A stretch of DNA of 64,000 nt from Eledone cirrhosa (Eukaryota), in assembly GCA_964016885.1 (NCBI GenBank), contig OZ024751.1, positions 17,174,001 through 17,238,000 on the forward strand, read 5' to 3'. The stretch's first letter is position 1, and each line of letters starts with the position of its first letter. The notes under the pieces are model-generated. The model made no database searches. It had not been told where the DNA came from and worked only from the letters and a program-made list of their open reading frames with translations. Positions 19,281-62,998 of the stretch are shown here, piece after piece. The position numbers and the translations under genes are program-made.

Positions 19281-19695
19281 GTTGATTTAATCAATATTTT
19301 TTTTTTTAAATTGAGAGACCACTGGTGTTTAACGAAGGATGGCTGGAAAGTTGAAATGAAGCATGCCATGCAAATATCAGTATTTTAATATATGTAAAAT
19401 ATGTGTAGATGTTTGTGTGAGATGTACTAATGAAATTTCTTTCAGAGACGTGCTTAAAATATAAATATACACACTTGAATAGACAAACACACATACACAC
19501 ACACAAATATATATATATATGCATATATATATATGCATATATATATATTTATATATATATATAGGGTGGAGTGTGGAGAGGATGAGTGCGATTGTATATT
19601 GTATTTAATTGTTCTCGTATTATTTTCATTTTGTCATATATACATATGTATGAATATATATATATATATGTATACATATATCTACATACTATAAG

Positions 19696-19874: not shown

Positions 19875-20214
19875 TATATATATATGTATATATATATATG
19901 CATATATATATATGTATATATATATATATGCATATATATATATATATATATATATACATGCATATATATATATATGCATATATATATATTTGTGTGTGTG
20001 TATGTGTGTTTGTCTATTCGAGTGTGTATATTTATATTTTAAGCACGTCTTTGAAAGAAATTTCATTAGTACATCTCACACAAACATCTACACATATTTT
20101 ACATATATTAAAATACTGATATTTGCATGGCATGCTTCATTTCAACTTTCCAGCCATCCTTCGTCAAACACCAGTGGTCTCTCAATTTAAAAAAAATATA
20201 TTGAGCAAATCAAT
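19281..20214. repeat. Long inverted repeat, about 260-bp arms
   Basis: 19281-19545 is the reverse complement of about 19955-20214, with few mismatches. Confidence 0.9.
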
Positions 20215-20497: not shown

Positions 20498-20617
20498 TTA
20501 ATATAGATGAGATTCTACAGGACTAGAACTGTTTCATTCTTTAGAAATCATGAGAGATTCCTGATGATTTCTAAAGAATGAAACAGTTCTAGTCCGGTAG
20601 AATCTCATCTATATTAA
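20498..20617. mobile_element. Fold-back with hammerhead core lacking a proper helix I
   Basis: About 54-bp arms; right arm CTGATGA-TTTCTAAAGAAT-GAAA-CAGTTCTAG-TC. Confidence 0.6.
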
Positions 20618-21534: not shown

Positions 21535-22020
21535 GTATTGTTCTTTGAGTCTCAGTCATTGATGTTAGTTAACTGGAAAGTTTGTTGAAATGAATATCAA
21601 GCCACTACCTGCAGCCTCAGATATTCAGGACGTATCGGAGGGTTCTTGCTGTTCGCAGCAAGCATGCCGTTTGAAGCGTTCCAAAAAGCGTGGCGGGGCC
21701 AATTTTCTTTAACCATCCCTGGAAACTTTTTGAGATAGTACCTAGTGCGCCTATGACAGTTCCAAATACTTTTTACCTCCCACTTTAAGTCCTGGTATCG
21801 GTTAATTTTCTCCCTCTCCTTCTCTTGCACTCTTGTGTCGAATGGGCAGGCCACATCCACAATCAGGCACGATCTTTTTTCTTTGTCCATAAACACCAGG
21901 TCAGGTCTATTGTGTTCCAGTTTCTTGTCCGTCTGTATCCTAAACTCCCACAGCACCTTCACCTGATCGTTTTCTATCACCGGCTCTGGCTTATGCTCAT
22001 ACCACTTCTCAGAATGTGGT
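21472..22020 (-). mobile_element. 5'-truncated R4/Dong-type non-LTR retrotransposon, restriction-like endonuclease domain
   Basis: KWYEHKPEPVIEN..VLWEFRIQTD..EHNRPDLV..IVDVACPFD..KEREKINRYQDL, then after a frameshifting deletion VIGALGTISK..LQTACLLRTARTLRYVLNI*; short 3'UTR, (AAG)n tail, 5' junction in (TAA)n. Confidence 0.9.
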
Positions 22021-22540
22021 ATTATTATTATTATTATTATTATTATCATCATCGTCACGTAACTGACGACCATGACAATATCAATAATTTCCTCAACAAC
22101 TATATAAGTAGATGATAACAAGTATTTTACTTTATAAAGTTTATTAACAATAGAAAACTTGTTAAACAAATCTTACACAATTCAACATTACAGGAAACAT
22201 CCAAAGATTATTGTAGGAGATTAGATATGAGCAGGAATCGGTAGAAGGTTATATATAACAGCCATACATATATAGCTGGTTTTCGTTCCTTTCTTAATAT
22301 TCTCTGCTTCTCACAATTTATACTGTTTTTATCATTTATTATCTTTACAAACAGACACACAGATACACACACACACGCGCGCACACTCACACATTCTCAA
22401 ACATAAACACGTAAACACGCACACACACAAACATGAAACGCACATAAACAGGGACAATGAACCTGTGGTGAAGCACTCTCGGCGTCACGGCATTTCAGCT
22501 GGCCTTAGAAATGCATTCCTTCTTTCCTCGTATATATAAA

Positions 22541-24437: not shown

Positions 24438-25268
24438 GAGGACAAACATGACTTCGTTAATCAGCAGATGCCCATCAATGTAAGGGAAAAGAAAGTTGAT
24501 TATATCGACCCTGGTCCTTAATTAGTATTAACGATCCCAAAGGGATGAAAGGCAAAGTTGACTTTTTGTGGATTACAACTCAGAATGTAAAAAACAAGAA
24601 AGAAAAAATAAAACAAAAGAAAAACCAAGCAAATGTCGCAAAGCATTCAGGCTTAAGGTCAACAATTATTTTCGATGCGGGTGGATAAGATGGTTTCGTG
24701 AAGCTTAGTACTAGTTTGGGACACTTCGAGCTCGGAATAATAAAAGGCGAAGTTGATTTCAACGCAATTTGCACTCAGAACGTAAAGAACTGTTCTTAAA
24801 TACTACAAGGTTTTTTGCGGAATGCTCTTGTAATTCTACCAAATATCTGCCACAAGGGGACAGCTTTGATTACACTATATTTTGGTTTAACTTGGGAAAG
24901 CCTTACATTTTGTGATGCGTAATCAGATGTACGAGGATTAAACAAGAATGAAATTAAGATAGTAATATGTAACCAGATCGATTTAATTTCGTCTAGCGTC
25001 ATTGATCATGCAATATGTCGAGATAACTAGAAACCAAGAATATACATCAATTCTTGGTTAAAGCTATTTAACTTCAATTAAAATGGTAAATGCCCAATAT
25101 CCTTCCATCGCCTTCCTTAAAATACTATAACTTATGGTGATATAACGAATATAATAATCGATGATTCATTTCTAAAAGATATAAAGTTATTTATGATTGC
25201 TTAACACCTAAGTATAGACTGTGTTTGTTTGGGTCGTTAAAATGTCAGGGATAAAGCTTCAACGTATT

Positions 25269-25778
25269 TGTGCCGGCTCCCTTTGTTCAAATCCAGCTGA
25301 GCTCTACTTTGCAATTCATTGTGCCGGCTCCCTTTGTTCAAATCCAGCTGAGCTCTACTTTGCAATTCATTGTGCCGTCTCACTTTGTTCAAATCCAGCT
25401 GAGCTCTACTTTGCAATTCATTGTGCCGGCTCCCTTTGTTCAAATCCAGCTGAGCTCTACTTTGCAATTCACTGTGCCGGCTCCCTTTGTTCAAATCCAG
25501 CTGAGCTCTACTTTGCAATTCATTGTGCCGGCTCCCTTTGTTCAAATCCAGCTGAGCTCTACTTTGCAATTCATTGTGCCGTCTCACTTTGTTCAAATCC
25601 AGCTGAGCTCTACTTTGCAATTCATTGTGCCGGCTCCCTTTGTTCAAATCCAGCTGAGCTCTACTTTGCAATTCACTGTGCCGGCTCCCTTTGTTCAAAT
25701 CCAGCTGAGCTCTACTTTGCAATTCATTGTGCCGGCTCCCTTTGTTCAAATCCAGCTGAGCTCTACTTTGCAATTCAT
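25269..25778 (+). repeat. Minisatellite, 10 x 51 bp, derived from an old SINE B-box region
   Basis: Unit TGTGCCGGCTCCCTTTGTTCAAATCCAGCTGAGCTCTACTTTGCAATTCAT; the last unit continues into SINE-like TCTTTCGATGACGATAAAACAAAGTACCAG. Confidence 0.95.
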
Positions 25779-27959
25779 TCTTTCGATGACGATAAAACAA
25801 AGTACCAGTCCAGTTATTCACTTGGGGTCGATTCTACCTCTATATCGAGTAAAAGTGAGCACAAAGCATTGTTCATTTAATCCATATCTTTTTATTCTGT
25901 GTGATTAACTAAGGAATTCACAATGTTCGTCACAAGTATGAAAATGCACTCTTGATAGGTGCAATGTGTTCGAACATGGAAGAGCCGAACTCCCACCGTC
26001 GTCGACCCCATCTCTCTCGCCCTCCCCATCTCATGCTATCATTCTCTATTTTGCTTTCATTCTACTCTTCACAGAAGGACATCGGCTCTGTTCACATTTA
26101 GAAACTCAATAAAAAATTAAAGGCTCCTGCATTCAGTAACTAAGTATAATGTATCTTGTTATATCTGTAACGTCATAGCGATGTCCCAACTGCACGGAGT
26201 TTCGGAGTGAATCCATGTTTAGGTCGGGTATAGCTTCGCAGCTATAATACAATGAATTATATATCAATCGTCTCGTGCATTGAATTTTGTATCTCCTGTT
26301 TGCACAGCAAAACCTAATGCCTTAGTATTTTATTTAGAATCTAATGCCCACTATAGCTAATCACGGAATTATACATATTAGAACTCCATGTACATTTCAC
26401 ATGATAGGTCATGGTCTGATCCTAATATACAACTACTTTGTGAATCGTGTTATAGACTGTGATTATCGACATTGAATAATGTCAATCAACCCACGAATAA
26501 ATTACAGATATTATGATATACCCCCCTCTCCGCCAATATTGTCCGTCCGACCTACAGTAAATTACTCTGATAATAGTAATAATTTGAATTGTAGATGAAA
26601 TAATGAAACAGAATGTATAAAGAACAAACAGCAAATTCTCCAAGGAAATCCTATGCTGGAAAATTTATCGATTTCTCACTTTGGCAAAACGCCTGGCATT
26701 ATTAATAGTCGAAGAATAAATCGAATTCTTTAAAAGAAACGTCATATTAAGTTCTGAAATTGTATTCTAAGGATATACATATAAAATTTCAAATACAAAC
26801 GTTAAACAATAATAAAAACAGCAACATCAAATGAAAGTGCCGAGTTCTCCATTTTCTTTTTTTTTTTTTTTTATTTATTTCTTTTTTTTTTGTAAATTGC
26901 AGAAGCATGGTAGAACTTGATAAAGTTCAAAAGTTTAAATAGACGGCGATAAAGTAAATAGCAGAACTAAAATATACAGTAGAGATAAGCAATAGAAGAA
27001 TGTACGAAAATAATGAGATTTAAGTATATACAAATCGTTTATACATAGTTAGTTTGCGGTTGTTTGATGATGTGCAGAATCCTAGGATAAACAATGTTTC
27101 CAGGCTAAACAATAACAACACTAAACCAGAAGCAAGAACATCAAAAACGGCAATAACAACAACACCAACATAACAGCAGCAGCAACAACAACATCATACG
27201 CGGGTTTTAACAAGAACGATAATAGCAGCAACGGGAACAGCGAGTACTTTAACAATAACCACAGTAGTAATGGCGACGTAATAACAGTAAAAATAGCAAC
27301 ATCATTGAACCAACGGCGACAGCAGTTTCATCAATAATAACCACAATAAAAACATATTCAACAAACTTTCAAATTGTCTACATTCAAATTGTTCGCCAGT
27401 GATTCTCATTTTAACTAGTAAAATATCGATGCCCAGCCCTAAAATCAACAAATCAGAGAGAAAAGAAATTCGAAATACTATCCTAACATTGATTGTACCA
27501 TATATACAGTACATTAAAAACCTAAAGCTATATTCTACCTTCTAACCTTTCGTGTCTATTTCTAGCTTCTAAGGTATGTATCCACAATTTCTCCATAGAA
27601 ACTAACAAACTATCAATAAAATGTTTAACAAGTTGCCGAGCCTATTCAAGGAACCATAACGCTTGATGAAGTGTTAGGAGCAACGTAGGTGCGTGCAAAC
27701 TCATACCAGGGATGGCTGAATGTTCAAAGTCTCACTATGAAAGAACGATGCTAGAGCTGTGAAATCTTGCTGGCATTAATTTGAACACATATTATTAGTA
27801 ATTACACTGTTTGATTCCAAGGGCTATGTTGCAAAAATAGCCCTCATTTGGTCATTCCATGAGAGTATCTTTGCCAGCACATGTGAGATTGACGAGCTAG
27901 AAAGGATCTTACAACGCGTCTCCCAGACCATCCTCCGGAGAAACGCCTTCCCTATTCTG

Positions 27960-29207: not shown

Positions 29208-29626
29208 TTGCCGTGATTTGTCAAGGAACGTTAGCTGCCACGTAGAATCATTTAAATGTATGCATTCTTTAGCCTTATATCACTTTCCACATTATCTCCT
29301 TATAATATATAACCAGCAATTTATCTGTCTGTCTGTCCGACAGTGGAAACACGTGCGCGCGTGCGAATGTTTTTTGCGCCCGCGTGGAGAGAGAAAGTGA
29401 TAGTGAAAGAAAGAGACAGACTACAAGAGAGGATAGCGGGAGGGAGAGAGGGGGGAATTGAGGAGTGCTACAGAAACATATATACATTTCTGTGTGTGTG
29501 TAATATATATATATATATACACACACAGAAATATATATATATACACACAGAAATATATATACATTTCTGTGTGTGTAATATATATATATATATACACACA
29601 GACATATATATACATTTCTGTGTGTG

Positions 29627-29669
<43 letters not shown>

Positions 29670-29941
29670 GAAATATATATACATTTCTGTGTGTGTAATA
29701 TATATATATATATATATATTACACACACAGAAATGTATATATATTTCTGTGTGTGTATATATATATATATTACACACACAGAAATGTATATATATATACA
29801 CACAGAAATATATATACATCCCTTAGCTACTCTACTGTATCTGTTGCTATCTCTCTCTCTCTCCAGCTATCCCTCTCTTTTAGTCTGTCTGTTTCTCTCA
29901 CTCTCACTCTTTCTCTTTGTAACACACTAACATTCCTCCCC

Positions 29942-32508: not shown

Positions 32509-32520
32509 GTATATACATAT

Positions 32521-32678
32521 ATGTAAGTATGCATGTATACGTACATACATATATGTATACAGACGTACAGTAGCATGCATATATATATATATATATATAC
32601 ATATATACATACATATGCATACAGGTACACATACATATATGCACTGATACGTGCATATATGTATGTGTACCTGTATGC

Positions 32679-32727
<49 letters not shown>

Positions 32728-33310
32728 TGCTACTGTACGTCTGTATACATATATGTATGTACGTATACATGCATACTTACATTTAAGTAAGTGCCATACT
32801 AAGAGTGAGAAATGAAATTTCGTATTCATTTTGTTTCAATTTATCGTTTTCGGTATGCCTGACCGATTTAACTCACTCAATATGCAAATTAGGCTGCTCA
32901 GCCGTTAATTTTCATAAGTGAAGTATATACTTTCGAACGTTCAACTATCTGGCAGATGGGTAAACGGTGCTGATGATAGCTAACAAGCTTGAAACTAGTA
33001 CATCGTTCCTGTGTCAGTGTTGAACAAAAAGGTGACGTGGTTGCCTTAACACCGTATGGCATAAATTCAGGCTGTTCAGTTTGTTTACAAACGAACAAAG
33101 CGACGTTACAATAAGCGCCGCTAAACTGATACGTGCATATATGTATGTGTACCTGTATGCATATGTATGTATATATATATATATATATATATATGCATGC
33201 TACTGTACGTCTGTATACATATATGTATGTACGTATACATGCATACTTACATTTAAGTAAGTGCCATACTAAGAGTGAGAAATGAAATTTCGTTTTCATT
33301 TTGTTTCAAT
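32521..33310 (+). mobile_element. Candidate non-autonomous retrozyme / PLE-mobilised element
   Basis: Direct repeats 32643-32840 and 33125-33310 (482-bp period), inverted copy 32521-32644, central hammerhead, no credible ORF, embedded in (TA)n. Confidence 0.7.
32963..33007 (+). ncRNA. Minimal type I hammerhead ribozyme, canonical core
   Basis: AACGGTG-CTGATGA-T-AGCT-AACA-AGCT-T-GAAA-CTAG-TA-CATCGTT; 7-bp helix I, palindromic ACTAGT helix III, predicted cleavage after GUA at 33000. Confidence 0.85.
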
Positions 33311-33878
<568 letters not shown>

Positions 33879-34251
33879 GTGTGACTGTGTCTGTGTGTGT
33901 GTATTGAAATTTCGTATTTCTAAGGAAACAGTATGTTTATGGATAAACGTTTAGAAAGCCGTAGCTACGCCCAAAACACCGTGTATTATAGCCCTCTGGT
34001 GGTGTCCAGCAGAAGCAATGATGACAATCGTCGATGCATTTCGAACTTAACTGGTTCTCATCAGGCCGCTCCCTCCCACACAGTCGAGAATATATACTTT
34101 CGTACATATATATATATATTTATATACACACTTATATATATATTATAGTTAAAACAGAAAACAAAAAAACAAAAACAAAGCGAAGAGGCAGTACAAAGTG
34201 TTCGTATTAGCTTCACGCTTATATACAAATATATATATACATATATATATG

Positions 34252-54157: not shown

Positions 54158-55600
<1,443 letters not shown>

Positions 55601-55636: not shown

Positions 55637-55937
55637 ATTAATAAAAGGAATTCCAAATTTGTCTGATTTACTCGTTTTATTTACAATCCTTTAAAATTAT
55701 AATGATATTATAATGAAATTGTGTGGTAGAATATTAAATGTTTAGTGCTAATTGAACAAGTACTTTCATGCTTTCGCAATCTTCAGATTCATATTCAGTG
55801 GTGACAGCCATGTTTGCAATTTTCAACAGCTAACATTTAATATTCTACCACACTATTTCATTATAATATCATTATAATTTTAAAGGATTGAAAATAAAAC
55901 GAGTAAATGAGACAAAGTTGGAATTCCTTTTATTAAT
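55637..55937. repeat. Fold-back, about 105-bp arms
   Basis: 55637-55743 is the reverse complement of 55832-55937. Confidence 0.88.
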
Positions 55938-59723: not shown

Positions 59724-60403
59724 ACTAACAAACTATCCTCTTGCATTATCTTCGTAAACTGCCGATGTTGTATTTTAGCTTTAATTTTTGTTTTAATATG
59801 ATTTTAATTTTTGAATTTAAATTGCCATGCAAAAATATTATAAGGGATGCCACCCCACTGTGCATCGATATATACATATGTTTCTGTATGTCTCTTGTGT
59901 TGGAAAGGAGGTCATGTATGTAAACAATCATTGAAAAATTGCTCCGAAGACACCAAACCTCGGTTTTGACGAAACAATTGTAATCTAATAAATGGTTTGA
60001 ACAGAACTTTGATTCATGTGATTTCTATATAACTGCTCTACAGAACAACTGATGTTATTACATTGAGCTATTTATCTTACTGGTAATAAGATAGTAATAA
60101 ATTACTGTCTTTCACTGTTTAGGGTTTAAAATATATATAACTATAAAAAGTTTTAGTATATACATAACCATAAATAGTATCCTTGATACTATAAATATAT
60201 ATATATATATATAGATAAATCTACCAAAAGTTTACGGTAGTGTCCAATCCGTATGAAGAACTCAATGTAATCCGGATATCATGAAAAGAGCAGATGCATT
60301 CAAAAACTACTTTCGGTGAAAAATAAACGGAAAACAGAGTCAAGATAAAATATTTAAAAAATAATGAATAAACAAAGAAACAGTTCCTTATATTAAAAAA
60401 ATC

Positions 60404-60545
60404 TCATTATTTTACGATCGTTTCTAGGATATATATGTGTTAGAGTTGGTATGCATATTCTATAGATCTATGTACAATATTTATACAAACTATCAGAGGG
60501 AATATACATACCTTCACATATATATGCTGTCTTCAGAAATAATGA
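60404..60545 (-). ncRNA. Hammerhead ribozyme, inverted copy of 62667-62808
   Basis: Same core and helices on the minus strand. Confidence 0.75.
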
Positions 60546-60795
60546 TACTTGTTTATTGATAAGAACAAAGATTCAATACAATAGGTCTGTTTGGGAACAG
60601 GTTTTGAATTGACCAATCAGGAGATAGTGAGGGTCAAGATAGTGATATTAGGAGAATCTTAAATTATGGGTAGAGGAAGGTAGATTTCAGTTTTGGATGG
60701 AAAAGAGTATTATAAATGAAGGATTAATTTAGGGAAGAAGTAGGTCATATGTTGACCTCAGAAATAATTTTATTTGTTCATTGAATAAAACATCT

Positions 60796-61041
60796 AATAC
60801 AACATCTCTAGCTGAAAAAATTAATAGTTATAGAAAGAGGAATATAGAATATGACCTGACCTGGAGTGTGCTCAAAAGGGCCACCCCTTATCAAAATAGT
60901 AGAAATGAATGTAGATTGTGTTCCCAAGAACTTTTCAAAATAATGAAATCTAAGGATATCCTATTAAATAAGCGACAGGAATTAATAATATCGTGTAATC
61001 ATAAACTGAGAAAAACATTTAAATATTATAAACCTAATTAA
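60796..61041 (+). pseudogene. PLE GIY-YIG endonuclease C-terminal fragment
   Basis: TSLA..IEYDLTWSVLKRATPY..CRLC..E..LLNKRQELIISCNH matches the WxILxxAxPY..CxLC..LLNxRxE..CxH pattern of invertebrate PLEs. Confidence 0.8.
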
Positions 61042-61533
61042 TATACACTTTAGAAATTAATATATAAATTAATTTTAATTTAGTTAACCTATAATTAATA
61101 TTCTACTACAGATGAATTACAAAATTCTGCTTTAAATATTATAAATCTAATTAATATACACTTTAGAAATTAATATACAAACTATTTTTAATTTAGTTAA
61201 CTTATAATTAATATTCTACTACTGATGAACTACATAATTTGGCTTTCCTTCTTACAAATATCATTTCCTAAAACTGATACCATTAAGTAAACATATGTAA
61301 TTATTTTTTATTTAGTTAACCTATAATTAATATTCTACTACTGATGAACTACATAATTCTGCTTTAAATATGATAAACCTAATTAATATACACCTTAGAA
61401 ATTTATATATAAACTATTTTTATTTTAGTTAACCTATAATTAATATTCTACTAATGATGAACTACATAATTTGGCTCTCCTTCTTACAAATATCATTTCC
61501 TAAAACTGATACCATTAAGTAAACATATATAAT
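61021..61533. repeat. AT-rich tandem repeat in the PLE 3'UTR (about 113-bp unit, about 231-bp higher-order duplication)
   Basis: TAGTTAAC.TATAATTAATATTCTACTA occurs four times. Confidence 0.85.
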
Positions 61534-61730
61534 GCTTTAACTTCAGGTTATGACTCTATGTTCCTTGAAACCTATATATATTTACTATTTCCCACTAATA
61601 AATTTAATCCCCCCCCAATAATTATATGTATATGTAAGTGTGGATGTGTGTGTATATAAGTGTGTATGTATGTATGTGTATATGTATGTGAGTGTAAACA
61701 AAAATATATATATGTATGTATATATATATG

Positions 61731-61781
<51 letters not shown>

Positions 61782-61909
61782 ATATGTGTGTGTATGTGTA
61801 TGAGTATATATATATATATGTCTGTGTGTGTGTATGTATATGTACATGTGTATATGCGTGTATATATATATATATATATATGGGTATATATTTGTGTGTG
61901 TATGTGTAT

Positions 61910-61949
<40 letters not shown>

Positions 61950-61991
61950 ATGTGTGTGTATATGTATGTATATATATGTAGGTACATATAA

Positions 61992-62035
<44 letters not shown>

Positions 62036-62666
62036 TTCTTATATTCTTTTAATCTCCCCTCATCCTTAACAGCACTTTTCAACTGCATCTAATTCTTATT
62101 TATCACATCTATATGTATTAGTATAATTTTATCAATATAAATATACCCATCAATTAAATTAATTTTATATCCTTTTCATAGATGTATTTTTTTTTCATTA
62201 ACATCCTTATCTTAAAACTCTGGTCACCTTAGATATTTGTATTGGCATTACTATTTTATAACAGCAACTGCTTGTATACCTTCTACTGACCACCTGACCT
62301 AGTTACACCCCTAAAATAAGTTTCAATTACTACTATTTTACCATTTGGCCAATTATTAACTTTCTATTGGTTAATTCTAAACCTCTTACCAAACAGACAG
62401 AATATATTTGATCTTTGTTGGTTTTATTCAATGAACAAATAAAATTATTTCTGAGGTCAACATATGACCTACTTCTTCCCTAAAGTAATCCTTCATTCAT
62501 AATACTCTTTTCCATCCAAAACTGAAATCTACCTTCCTCTACCCATAATTTAAGATTCTCCTAATATCACTATCTTGACCCGCACTATCTCCTGATTGAT
62601 CAATTCAAAACCTGTTCCCAAACAGACCTATTGTATTGAATCTTTGTTCTTATCAATAAATAAGTA

Positions 62667-62808
62667 TCATTATTTCTGAAGACAGCATATATATGTGAAG
62701 GTATGTATATTCCCGCTGATAGTTTGTATAAATATTGTACATAGATCTATAGAATATGCATACCAACTCTAACACATATATATCCTAGAAACGATCGTAA
62801 AATAATGA
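62667..62808 (+). ncRNA. Type I hammerhead ribozyme with about 105-nt extended helix II
   Basis: TCATTATTT-CTGAAGA...GAAA-CGATCG-TA-AAATAATGA (9-bp helix I); helix II ATATATATGTG/CACATATATAT and GGTATGTATATTC/GAATATGCATACC. Confidence 0.8.
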
Positions 62809-62998
62809 GATTTGTTTAATATAAGGAACTGTTTCTTTGTTTATTCATTATTTTTTTAATATTTTATAAATATATATATATGCATATATATATATAATAT
62901 ATATATATATATGCATATATATATGAGTATATGTATAAAATATATATAACTATAAAAAGTTTTAGTATATACATAACCATAAATAGTATCCTTAATAC

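Follow-up and report, generated by a model that had tools for sequence, protein, structure and literature searches.

How animal retrozymes return to DNA has been proposed rather than demonstrated in the available text of the literature concerned (PMC7229834; PMC7761336; bioRxiv 10.64898/2026.07.22.740005), and a hammerhead-bearing repeat in Eledone cirrhosa DNA raises this question at a single locus: to which class of element does it belong, and by which enzyme and from which template was it placed in a (TA)n tract? We analyzed a stretch of 64,000 nucleotides (hereafter the window) with the repeat near its middle. On balance, we favor the reading that the locus represents a solo copy, 1.4 units long, of a retrozyme-type animal hammerhead repeat that numbers several thousand copies, and that it was likely inserted via the borrowed RT/endonuclease of a Penelope-like element (PLE). 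The class and the PLE link are already known or proposed; the contribution of the present copy is the footprint of its insertion, from which start sites open to testing can be read. It places a PLE-type footprint, in terms of two arms, a one-sided tail and a (TA)n site, on a protein-free hammerhead unit, and its two candidate RT starts can be tested in a PAc-type in vitro assay with circular versus linear templates. A single 1.4-unit copy is weaker evidence than a long array.

Structure of the Locus and the Repeat Unit

The features of the locus are collected in Table 1. The long arm (32643–33310, plus strand) measures 668 nt and comprises 1.4 copies of a non-coding unit of ~470 nt, the surplus being visible as two direct repeats of 198 and 186 nt; with the TA run set aside, they differ by one mismatch in 158 nt. 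Measured between the repeat starts the period is 482 nt, and between the repeat ends 470 nt, with the discrepancy located in the TA run; the unit is given here as 470–482 nt, with a GC content of 35.7%. The left arm is the reverse complement of unit positions 32651–32782, and the two arms meet head-to-head through a 2-nt AC overlap (32643–32644) and a 6-nt spacer (32645–32650). At each outer end the sequence passes into (TA)n, in which the CA interruptions are the same on the two sides, and (TA)n tracts are frequent across the window. The near-identical direct repeats, the palindromic left end with its 6-nt spacer and the (TA)n at both ends had all been described in the earlier note and were recovered at the same positions; its “285-bp unique core” is a core of 284 nt, whose uniqueness holds in the window and gives way to a multicopy state in the species.

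Table 1. Features of the hammerhead repeat locus, in window coordinates.
Feature	Position	Strand	Remarks
Possible target-site duplication, 11–12 nt	32510–32521	+	With 33310–33321; weak, ~10% chance level
Inverted short arm	32521–32644	-	Outer end in the loop of the predicted unit hairpin 33244–33263 (candidate RT start 1)
Head-to-head junction	32643–32650		AC overlap and 6-nt spacer
Direct repeat 1 (DR1), partial second unit, pLTR-like	32643–32840	+	One change at 32824
Core, 284 nt	32841–33124	+	Single occurrence in the window; 41% GC
Octamer ATGCAAAT (32882–32889) and TATA-like palindrome (32919–32934)	32882–32935	+	Putative internal promoter
Extended interrupted stem bearing the hammerhead	32939–33025	+	Predicted fold
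Type I hammerhead	32963–33007	+	Motif; predicted cut after GUA at 33000/33001
Direct repeat 2 (DR2): AU-rich long hairpin (33127–33239) and 3′ end of the long arm	33125–33310	+	Repeat comparison, fold
58-nt “tail”, right arm only	33253–33310	+	Between candidate RT starts 1 and 2; two small predicted hairpins

Metazoan non-LTR retrozymes are recognized by the lack of LTR, PBS and PPT and, where a target-site duplication is present, by its length of >4 bp. The 11–12-nt candidate duplication at this locus has an equally good match in 8,522 of 88,711 random flank pairs, which is a chance level of ~10%. No protein-like ORF was seen by eye in the six-frame translation of the unit, and an ORF with RT and GIY-YIG endonuclease, the hallmark of an autonomous PLE, is absent from the unit in both the six-frame translation and the ORF list.

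The Hammerhead Motif and Its Predicted Fold

The hammerhead consists of a 7-bp helix I with one G.U pair, CUGAUGA (32970–32976), a 4-bp helix II with U.U, GAAA, and a helix III formed by the palindromic CUAG (1 bp plus tetraloop), followed by GUA at 32998–33000, a triplet found in natural hammerheads (PMC1636495, as far as available). A strict descriptor, designed post hoc from this very motif, hit 2 sites in the window compared with 0 in 100 Markov-2 simulations of the window, and a single site within 32521–33310. Rfam gave no match to the hammerhead at gathering level; below the threshold, Hammerhead_HH9 matched weakly (18.5 bits, E 0.12, with the gathering score set at 52). Rfam matches to miRNA families were dismissed as AU-repeat noise. 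The exact hammerhead pattern had 0 matches in metagenome contigs and 0 in viral contigs.

In the accessible text of a review, the minimal hammerheads of PLEs are defined as those without non-conserved helix III nucleotides (PMC7761336). Since CUAG between GAAA and UA keeps such nucleotides, the motif studied here is not minimal; by its sequence it is of the amphibian type, with a 1-bp helix III, a palindromic tetraloop and U.U. A previous designation as a “minimal type I hammerhead” therefore stands for type I, with an intact core and GUA, and falls for “minimal”. By nearest-neighbor energies, the active monomer fold reaches -2.0 kcal/mol, compared with -9.5 kcal/mol for its best competitor; for the double hammerhead the value is -20.8 kcal/mol, the dimer optimum being -21.7 kcal/mol. 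As the monomer fold is disfavored and the double-hammerhead fold lies near the dimer optimum, cleavage would be expected in the dimer; the palindromic helix III suits a double hammerhead, and the ribozyme is probably dimer-acting, an earlier suggestion with which the computed energies agree. In the published excerpts available, axolotl hammerheads cut better as dimers (PMC7229834), and of nine predicted dimers from Xenopus eight failed to cleave (Li, Clavereau, Pollet, 2026; bioRxiv 10.64898/2026.07.22.740005). With its single hammerhead, the present copy could not by itself release a monomer, as had been anticipated, and is probably a dead end.

The predicted stem at 32939–33025 carries the hammerhead at its tip, with outer pairs (32939–32954/33012–33025) at p 0.9–1.0. 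The fold of the core is better than that of 199 of 200 shuffled sequences (z -3.05), and the fold of the whole unit has a z of -8.6, a value inflated by AU repeats.

A Family of Thousands of Copies

Unitigs and contigs of sequencing runs were used to place the copy in its family. The unit or part of it was present in 20 listed runs from 15 studies under 16 different labels, none of them recorded as RNA, so that they are uninformative on expression. Three runs from one sample (X1, X4 and X6) represent the species of the window, as judged by a contig over 37773–39400 with 0, 0 and 3 substitutions at depths of 3.93, 7.33 and 4.6, respectively; the X1 control contig spans 1,629 nt with 0 substitutions and 1 indel at depth 3.93. 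As these runs may derive from the source sample of the assembly, they serve as calibration and not as independent support. The unit is represented in X1 by 3,924 unitigs, one of which, a variant with a 6-nt deletion at 33108, has a depth of 22,000 compared with 3.93 for the single-copy flank. This corresponds to ~2,800–5,600 copies for that one variant unitig (2,800 if the control contig represents one haplotype), and an alternative estimate gives 1,200–2,500, obtained by dividing by 31, to correct for overlap, the smallest summed depth of any listed core site other than the 33108 indel. The sum of unitig depths itself (300,000 and more) is no suitable measure of copy number, as overlaps inflate it up to 31-fold, and the single-unitig figure was preferred. 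The unit is thus multicopy in Eledone cirrhosa, with thousands of copies, and a single-copy core, which would have spoken against a retrozyme, is not what the depth indicates.

The period of ~470 nt is a property of the family. The junction 32840|32841 is bridged by unitigs (X1 record 1, X2 record 12), as is the junction 33124|33125 (X1 records 7 and 8, X7 record 24), each with at least 31 letters per side, and the duplicated segments have a unitig depth similar in order of magnitude to that of the core; both observations indicate that the duplicated part belongs to the unit and not to the flank. The concern that the core might always be the terminus of an ORF-bearing PLE is countered by the same bridging unitigs, which indicate that the 470-nt period is general. 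No loose end at 32840 was found among the 18 of 109 loose ends that were listed, and the stretch beside the other end, 32726–32776, was masked.

Fifteen variant sites at no less than 5% of the family depth were listed, with 2 in helix I, 0 in the catalytic core and 0 in the octamer. The helix I variants at 32963 (42% of summed depth) and 32967 (5%) are not accompanied by a compensatory change, and for the 31-nt catalytic core, in which no variant was listed, ~1 would be expected by chance, a difference without significance. Positions 32824, 32919 and 32920, and possibly the 6-nt indel, set the present copy apart from nearly all of the family depth; at ~1% of the ~390 nt covered, this divergence marks it as young; the change at 32824 is confined to DR1 and absent in DR2. 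Among the family variants at this frequency, A>G and T>C numbered 2 and 4, with no mark of RNA editing in what is an insensitive test.

The unit shares with metazoan retrozymes a type I hammerhead with an intact core, a small non-coding unit, a GC content <50% and a multicopy state, and it very probably belongs to a family of the retrozyme type. The bridging unitigs show a head-to-tail period of the family, with no two hammerheads in succession among them. Two consecutive hammerhead units are absent at the locus, which makes it a solo or monomer-class copy outside the “active” definition of Li et al. (2026). A wide distribution across organisms, or horizontal transfer, was rejected as unsupported, trace carry-over of a high-copy repeat being simpler, and the other organism labels most likely reflect such traces. 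A contig run labeled as organism E contained the unit at low depth, with majority alleles as in organism A. Among 1,938 million letters of raw reads from organism E there were 0 matches, which is no true test unless the organism is shown to be in the run. Run X13, from another sample of the same organism, covered the intergenic control in 5 of its 30 bins, as either RNA or shallow DNA might, and was left out.

Insertion Footprint and a Probable Penelope-Like Route

Both arms of the copy face outward, and their ends lie 58 nt apart in the unit (33252 on the left, 33310 on the right), with the extra 58 nt on the right only. The right arm ends just past a small hairpin and the left arm in the loop of another hairpin, and “AT” is common to the unit and the target at both arm ends. 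The candidate RT starts, read from this one insertion, are located downstream of the cut site, at distances of 252 and 310 nt. Where the TA run begins, the left arm agrees with DR2 and not with the adjacent DR1, which slightly favors independent priming over fold-back copying; a microsatellite change could also explain it.

This layout resembles that of PLE insertions, which, according to the available text of Craig et al. (2021; PMC8557442), comprise partial tandems, often with an inverted 5′-truncated copy at the 5′ end, a 30–40-nt tail at one end and, in several clades, (TA)n targets. A partial tandem with an inverted 5′-truncated copy and an AT-rich (TA)n target are both found here, and the one-sided extension is 58 nt in the one copy compared with the published 30–40 nt. 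The earlier note had proposed an insertion exceeding one unit in length and bearing an inverted 5′ arm as in PLEs, and the 1.4 units together with the reverse-complement arm bear this out. Similarly, in vitro, PAc, a protein of a PLE, cuts a nick in each target strand and extends both, prefers AT-rich DNA and starts reverse transcription at two internal sites in stem-loop regions, the tail being the sequence between them, as far as can be taken from the accessible part of the report (Frangieh et al., 2024; PMC11167929). That animal retrozymes derive from PLEs has been proposed earlier (Li et al., 2026, in the part available). By analogy with these systems, insertion at the present locus was likely driven by a PLE, and, judged from its sequence, the unit acts as a non-autonomous passenger of PLEs and does not count among the autonomous ones. 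No significant match of the unit to a PLE was found elsewhere within the window.

The following route would account for the copy. A tandem source copy elsewhere would be transcribed, its paired hammerheads would cut after GUA, and the monomer would likely be ligated into a circle. A PLE protein would then nick both strands of the (TA)n tract, and each nick would prime synthesis at one of the two internal RNA starts, 58 nt apart. One cDNA would extend over 668 nt, past the cut and ligation site and 198 nt into a second round, while the other would halt at ~130 nt, and the two cDNAs would be joined via the 2-nt overlap.

Template of the Insertion and Alternative Explanations

As the long arm crosses the cut site, two templates come into question first, a ligated circle and a tandem transcript left uncut, with a template jump as a less likely third source; a cut, unligated 3′ fragment is insufficient because it could template 310 nt only. 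The view that the copy is a cDNA of a circular or multimeric RNA thus holds for a template longer than the unit, to which the 668-nt arm testifies, and does not extend to the circle as such, since an uncut tandem transcript yields the same 1.4 units. We lean narrowly toward a circle. Circular RNAs have been shown for coral, mussel and axolotl retrozymes (PMC7229834, in part available), and circles are the templates of animal retrozyme insertion proposed in the literature, likewise available in part. Alternatively, with the same element and a PLE enzyme, read-through of a tandem or partial-tandem copy may have supplied a linear RNA that stayed uncut, the hammerhead being slow or protein-gated and no circle being involved, as in a non-autonomous mini-PLE. 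Although a dimer transcript would be long enough and the weak monomer fold (-2.0 vs. -9.5 kcal/mol) is compatible with slow cleavage, we consider this rather unlikely: the hammerhead core is intact, with no listed family variant at 5% or above (by itself not significant), the unit is highly structured like retrozyme circles (z -8.6 for the whole, AU-inflated, and -3.05 for the core), and related animal repeats accumulate as circles. A precedent for a linear template is PAc, for which the available text reports that uncut RNA was inserted in vitro and was the main insertion substrate, that hammerhead cleavage was dispensable in vitro, that the ribozyme needs protein, and that 0 RNA-seq reads ended at its cleavage site (PMC11167929); non-autonomous Chlamys elements, moreover, form pLTRs and head-to-tail copies (PMC8557442, in part).

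Two further explanations dispense with a retrozyme-like unit or with its insertion in the present form. The locus could be what is left of an autonomous PLE with an ORF, namely its 5′-truncated end (pLTR), in which case a template switch at this locus only would have produced the direct repeat. Every feature of the layout is indeed a PLE feature, a GIY-YIG-like relic lies at 60733–61041, and a few low-depth contigs of X2 and X7 share the hammerhead segment only, with unrelated sequence upstream (loose ends at 32959–32960). Nevertheless, the family unitigs join tail to core and core to AU hairpin at a depth like that of the rest of the unit, a protein-like ORF was not seen by eye in six frames, and the hammerhead is not of the “minimal” PLE type, all of which renders this explanation highly improbable. 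It is also very unlikely that a monomer came first and that the duplication and palindrome arose later at the DNA level, through slippage, fold-back repair or local microsatellite duplication, or that they are an assembly artefact, given that the duplicated part is family unit and not flank (depth, bridging unitigs), that the left arm is like DR2 and unlike its neighbor DR1, and that the arrangement is the one published for PLEs; the three copies also differ slightly, which is unexpected from a simple mis-join. Such a rearrangement would find some footing in the 2-nt junction overlap, which could self-prime a fold-back, in the long, unstable (TA)n tract, and in the fact that no single read or contig was aligned over the whole locus.

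A Candidate Internal Promoter

The octamer in the core of the unit, which we take to be the octamer motif of snRNA-type promoters, sits together with the TATA-like palindrome directly upstream of the ribozyme arm, and the two may form an internal promoter of the unit. The octamer has no listed family variant at 5% or more. It occurs five times in the window, and the promoter idea therefore stays a lead only. An snRNA-type internal promoter has been reported for newt satellite 2 (PMC2220036), and according to a review retrozymes seem to be without promoters (PMC7761336), both sources being available in part. An extended model, quite unlikely in its entirety, would be a self-transcribing retrozyme, in which each unit carries an snRNA-type promoter, cleavage and ligation yield a circle of ~470 nt, a PLE enzyme primes both strands of one (TA)n break at two fixed sites of the circle, and the terminal TTTCAAT acts as recognition signal. 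If true, it would give retrozymes a promoter and a defined PLE recognition signal, and the step from circle to DNA would be directly testable in vitro.

Comparison with Known Systems

The closest counterparts are the metazoan non-LTR retrozymes of coral, mussel and axolotl (Cervera and de la Pena, 2020; PMC7229834), which in the available text are likewise small, non-coding, low-GC repeats in thousands of copies with a type I hammerhead and a predicted self-paired RNA. Helix III resembles that of HHR_Amex1 (1 bp plus palindromic tetraloop), and the U.U at the helix II base that of HHR_Amex2. In contrast, the unit of 470–482 nt, with its single hammerhead, exceeds the 170–400-nt RNAs of these retrozymes, the inverted arm and tail are absent from the descriptions in the accessible part of that paper, and circles and cleavage were shown there, whereas the features reported here are at sequence level. 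The vertebrate retrozymes of Li et al. (2026) are also regarded as non-autonomous PLE derivatives, with units of 51–972 bp, a range that takes in the present unit, and solo “monomer” copies are counted as members; in the part of the preprint available, no mollusc is sampled, the PLE link relies on co-occurrence and pLTR similarity rather than on insertion anatomy, and local tandem amplification is favored.

As for PLEs, the resemblance to PAc/Poseidon of Anolis (PMC11167929, in part) is one of layout: both strands are extended, two internal RT starts bound a one-sided tail, the target is AT-rich, and the hammerhead lies upstream of the starts. PAc encodes an RT-endonuclease, whereas the unit encodes nothing, and the tail is 30–40 nt in PAc and 58 nt here. 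With EN+ PLEs and the non-autonomous Chlamys/MRC1 (PMC8557442 and its preprint, both in part) the copy has in common the partial tandem, the inverted 5′-truncated copy, the tail at one end and the (TA)n targeting (Naiad, Hydra). Derivatives of the Chlamys/MRC1 type have pLTRs and head-to-tail copies, and PLEs are present in Octopus spp. (PMC8557442); Naiads are reported, in the accessible text, to be without canonical hammerheads, whereas the unit has one. Newt satellite 2 (PMC2220036; PMC7229834; both in part), likened by description only, is a short repeat with a dimer-type hammerhead, and the octamer recalls its snRNA-type promoter. In the available portion of a paper that lists Penelope expansions in octopus (PMC8967140), ribozymes are unmentioned, and literature searches, which left most subscription journals outside their coverage, found no paper on a cephalopod retrozyme.

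Other Elements in the Window

A second hammerhead element of ~200 nt lies at 33903–34105 (minus strand), ~600 nt from the studied element, which it faces across the same TA tract; its core is at 34064, with a palindromic UGCA helix III and a degenerate helix I. Each carries AAGTATATA in a hairpin located 30–50 nt before the core as well as GAAATTTC close to the 3′ end, their TATA hairpins are similar, both elements end in TTTCAAT before the microsatellite, and only 2 of 30 window sites, namely those of these two elements, have TTTCAAT followed by three AT/AC units. They do not align with each other (61 of 300 shuffles score equally). The window contains six more hammerhead-like cores, at 20561(+), 20976(+), 34889(-), 41091(-), 46510(-) and 55786(-), of which 20976 and 34889 are clear homologs, and the core at 55786 has U.U at the helix II base and a palindromic GUAC helix III within an inverted repeat. 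In addition, related short sequences beside TA tracts at 54400–54530 and 60215–60330 carry hammerhead-like pieces (TATGAA, GAAA), and near-identical inverted arms of ~200 nt surround a TA tract at 19300–19500 and 19990–20210, each with the octamer and GAAATTTC.

A PLE-like relic occupies 60200–62870, with a GIY-YIG-like ORF fragment at 60733–61041 (Atlas feature score 0.95) followed by tandem repeats of 113–232 nt, and an inverted arm of 447 nt with 98% identity (~60345–60791 vs. 62421–62867) gives it a two-armed layout as in the studied copy. No link between the relic and the studied unit was found. An ORF fragment at 21597–22172 (minus strand) presumably resembles the restriction-like endonuclease of non-LTR retrotransposons. 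For four ORF fragments of the window, including these two, Pfam gave nothing at cut-off, and no tRNA gene was found in the window. An interspersed repeat of ~200 nt at 2033–2244 and ~20 other places, with copies 73–92% identical, is by eye probably a SINE, and a 51-nt minisatellite at 25268–25779 comprises ten copies with 97% matches and is open in several frames. Palindromic insertions centered on TA runs occur at 2476–2665, with identical arms (2476–2517 and 2624–2665), and at 29470–29816, and nested inverted CACACAGAAA units are found among them.
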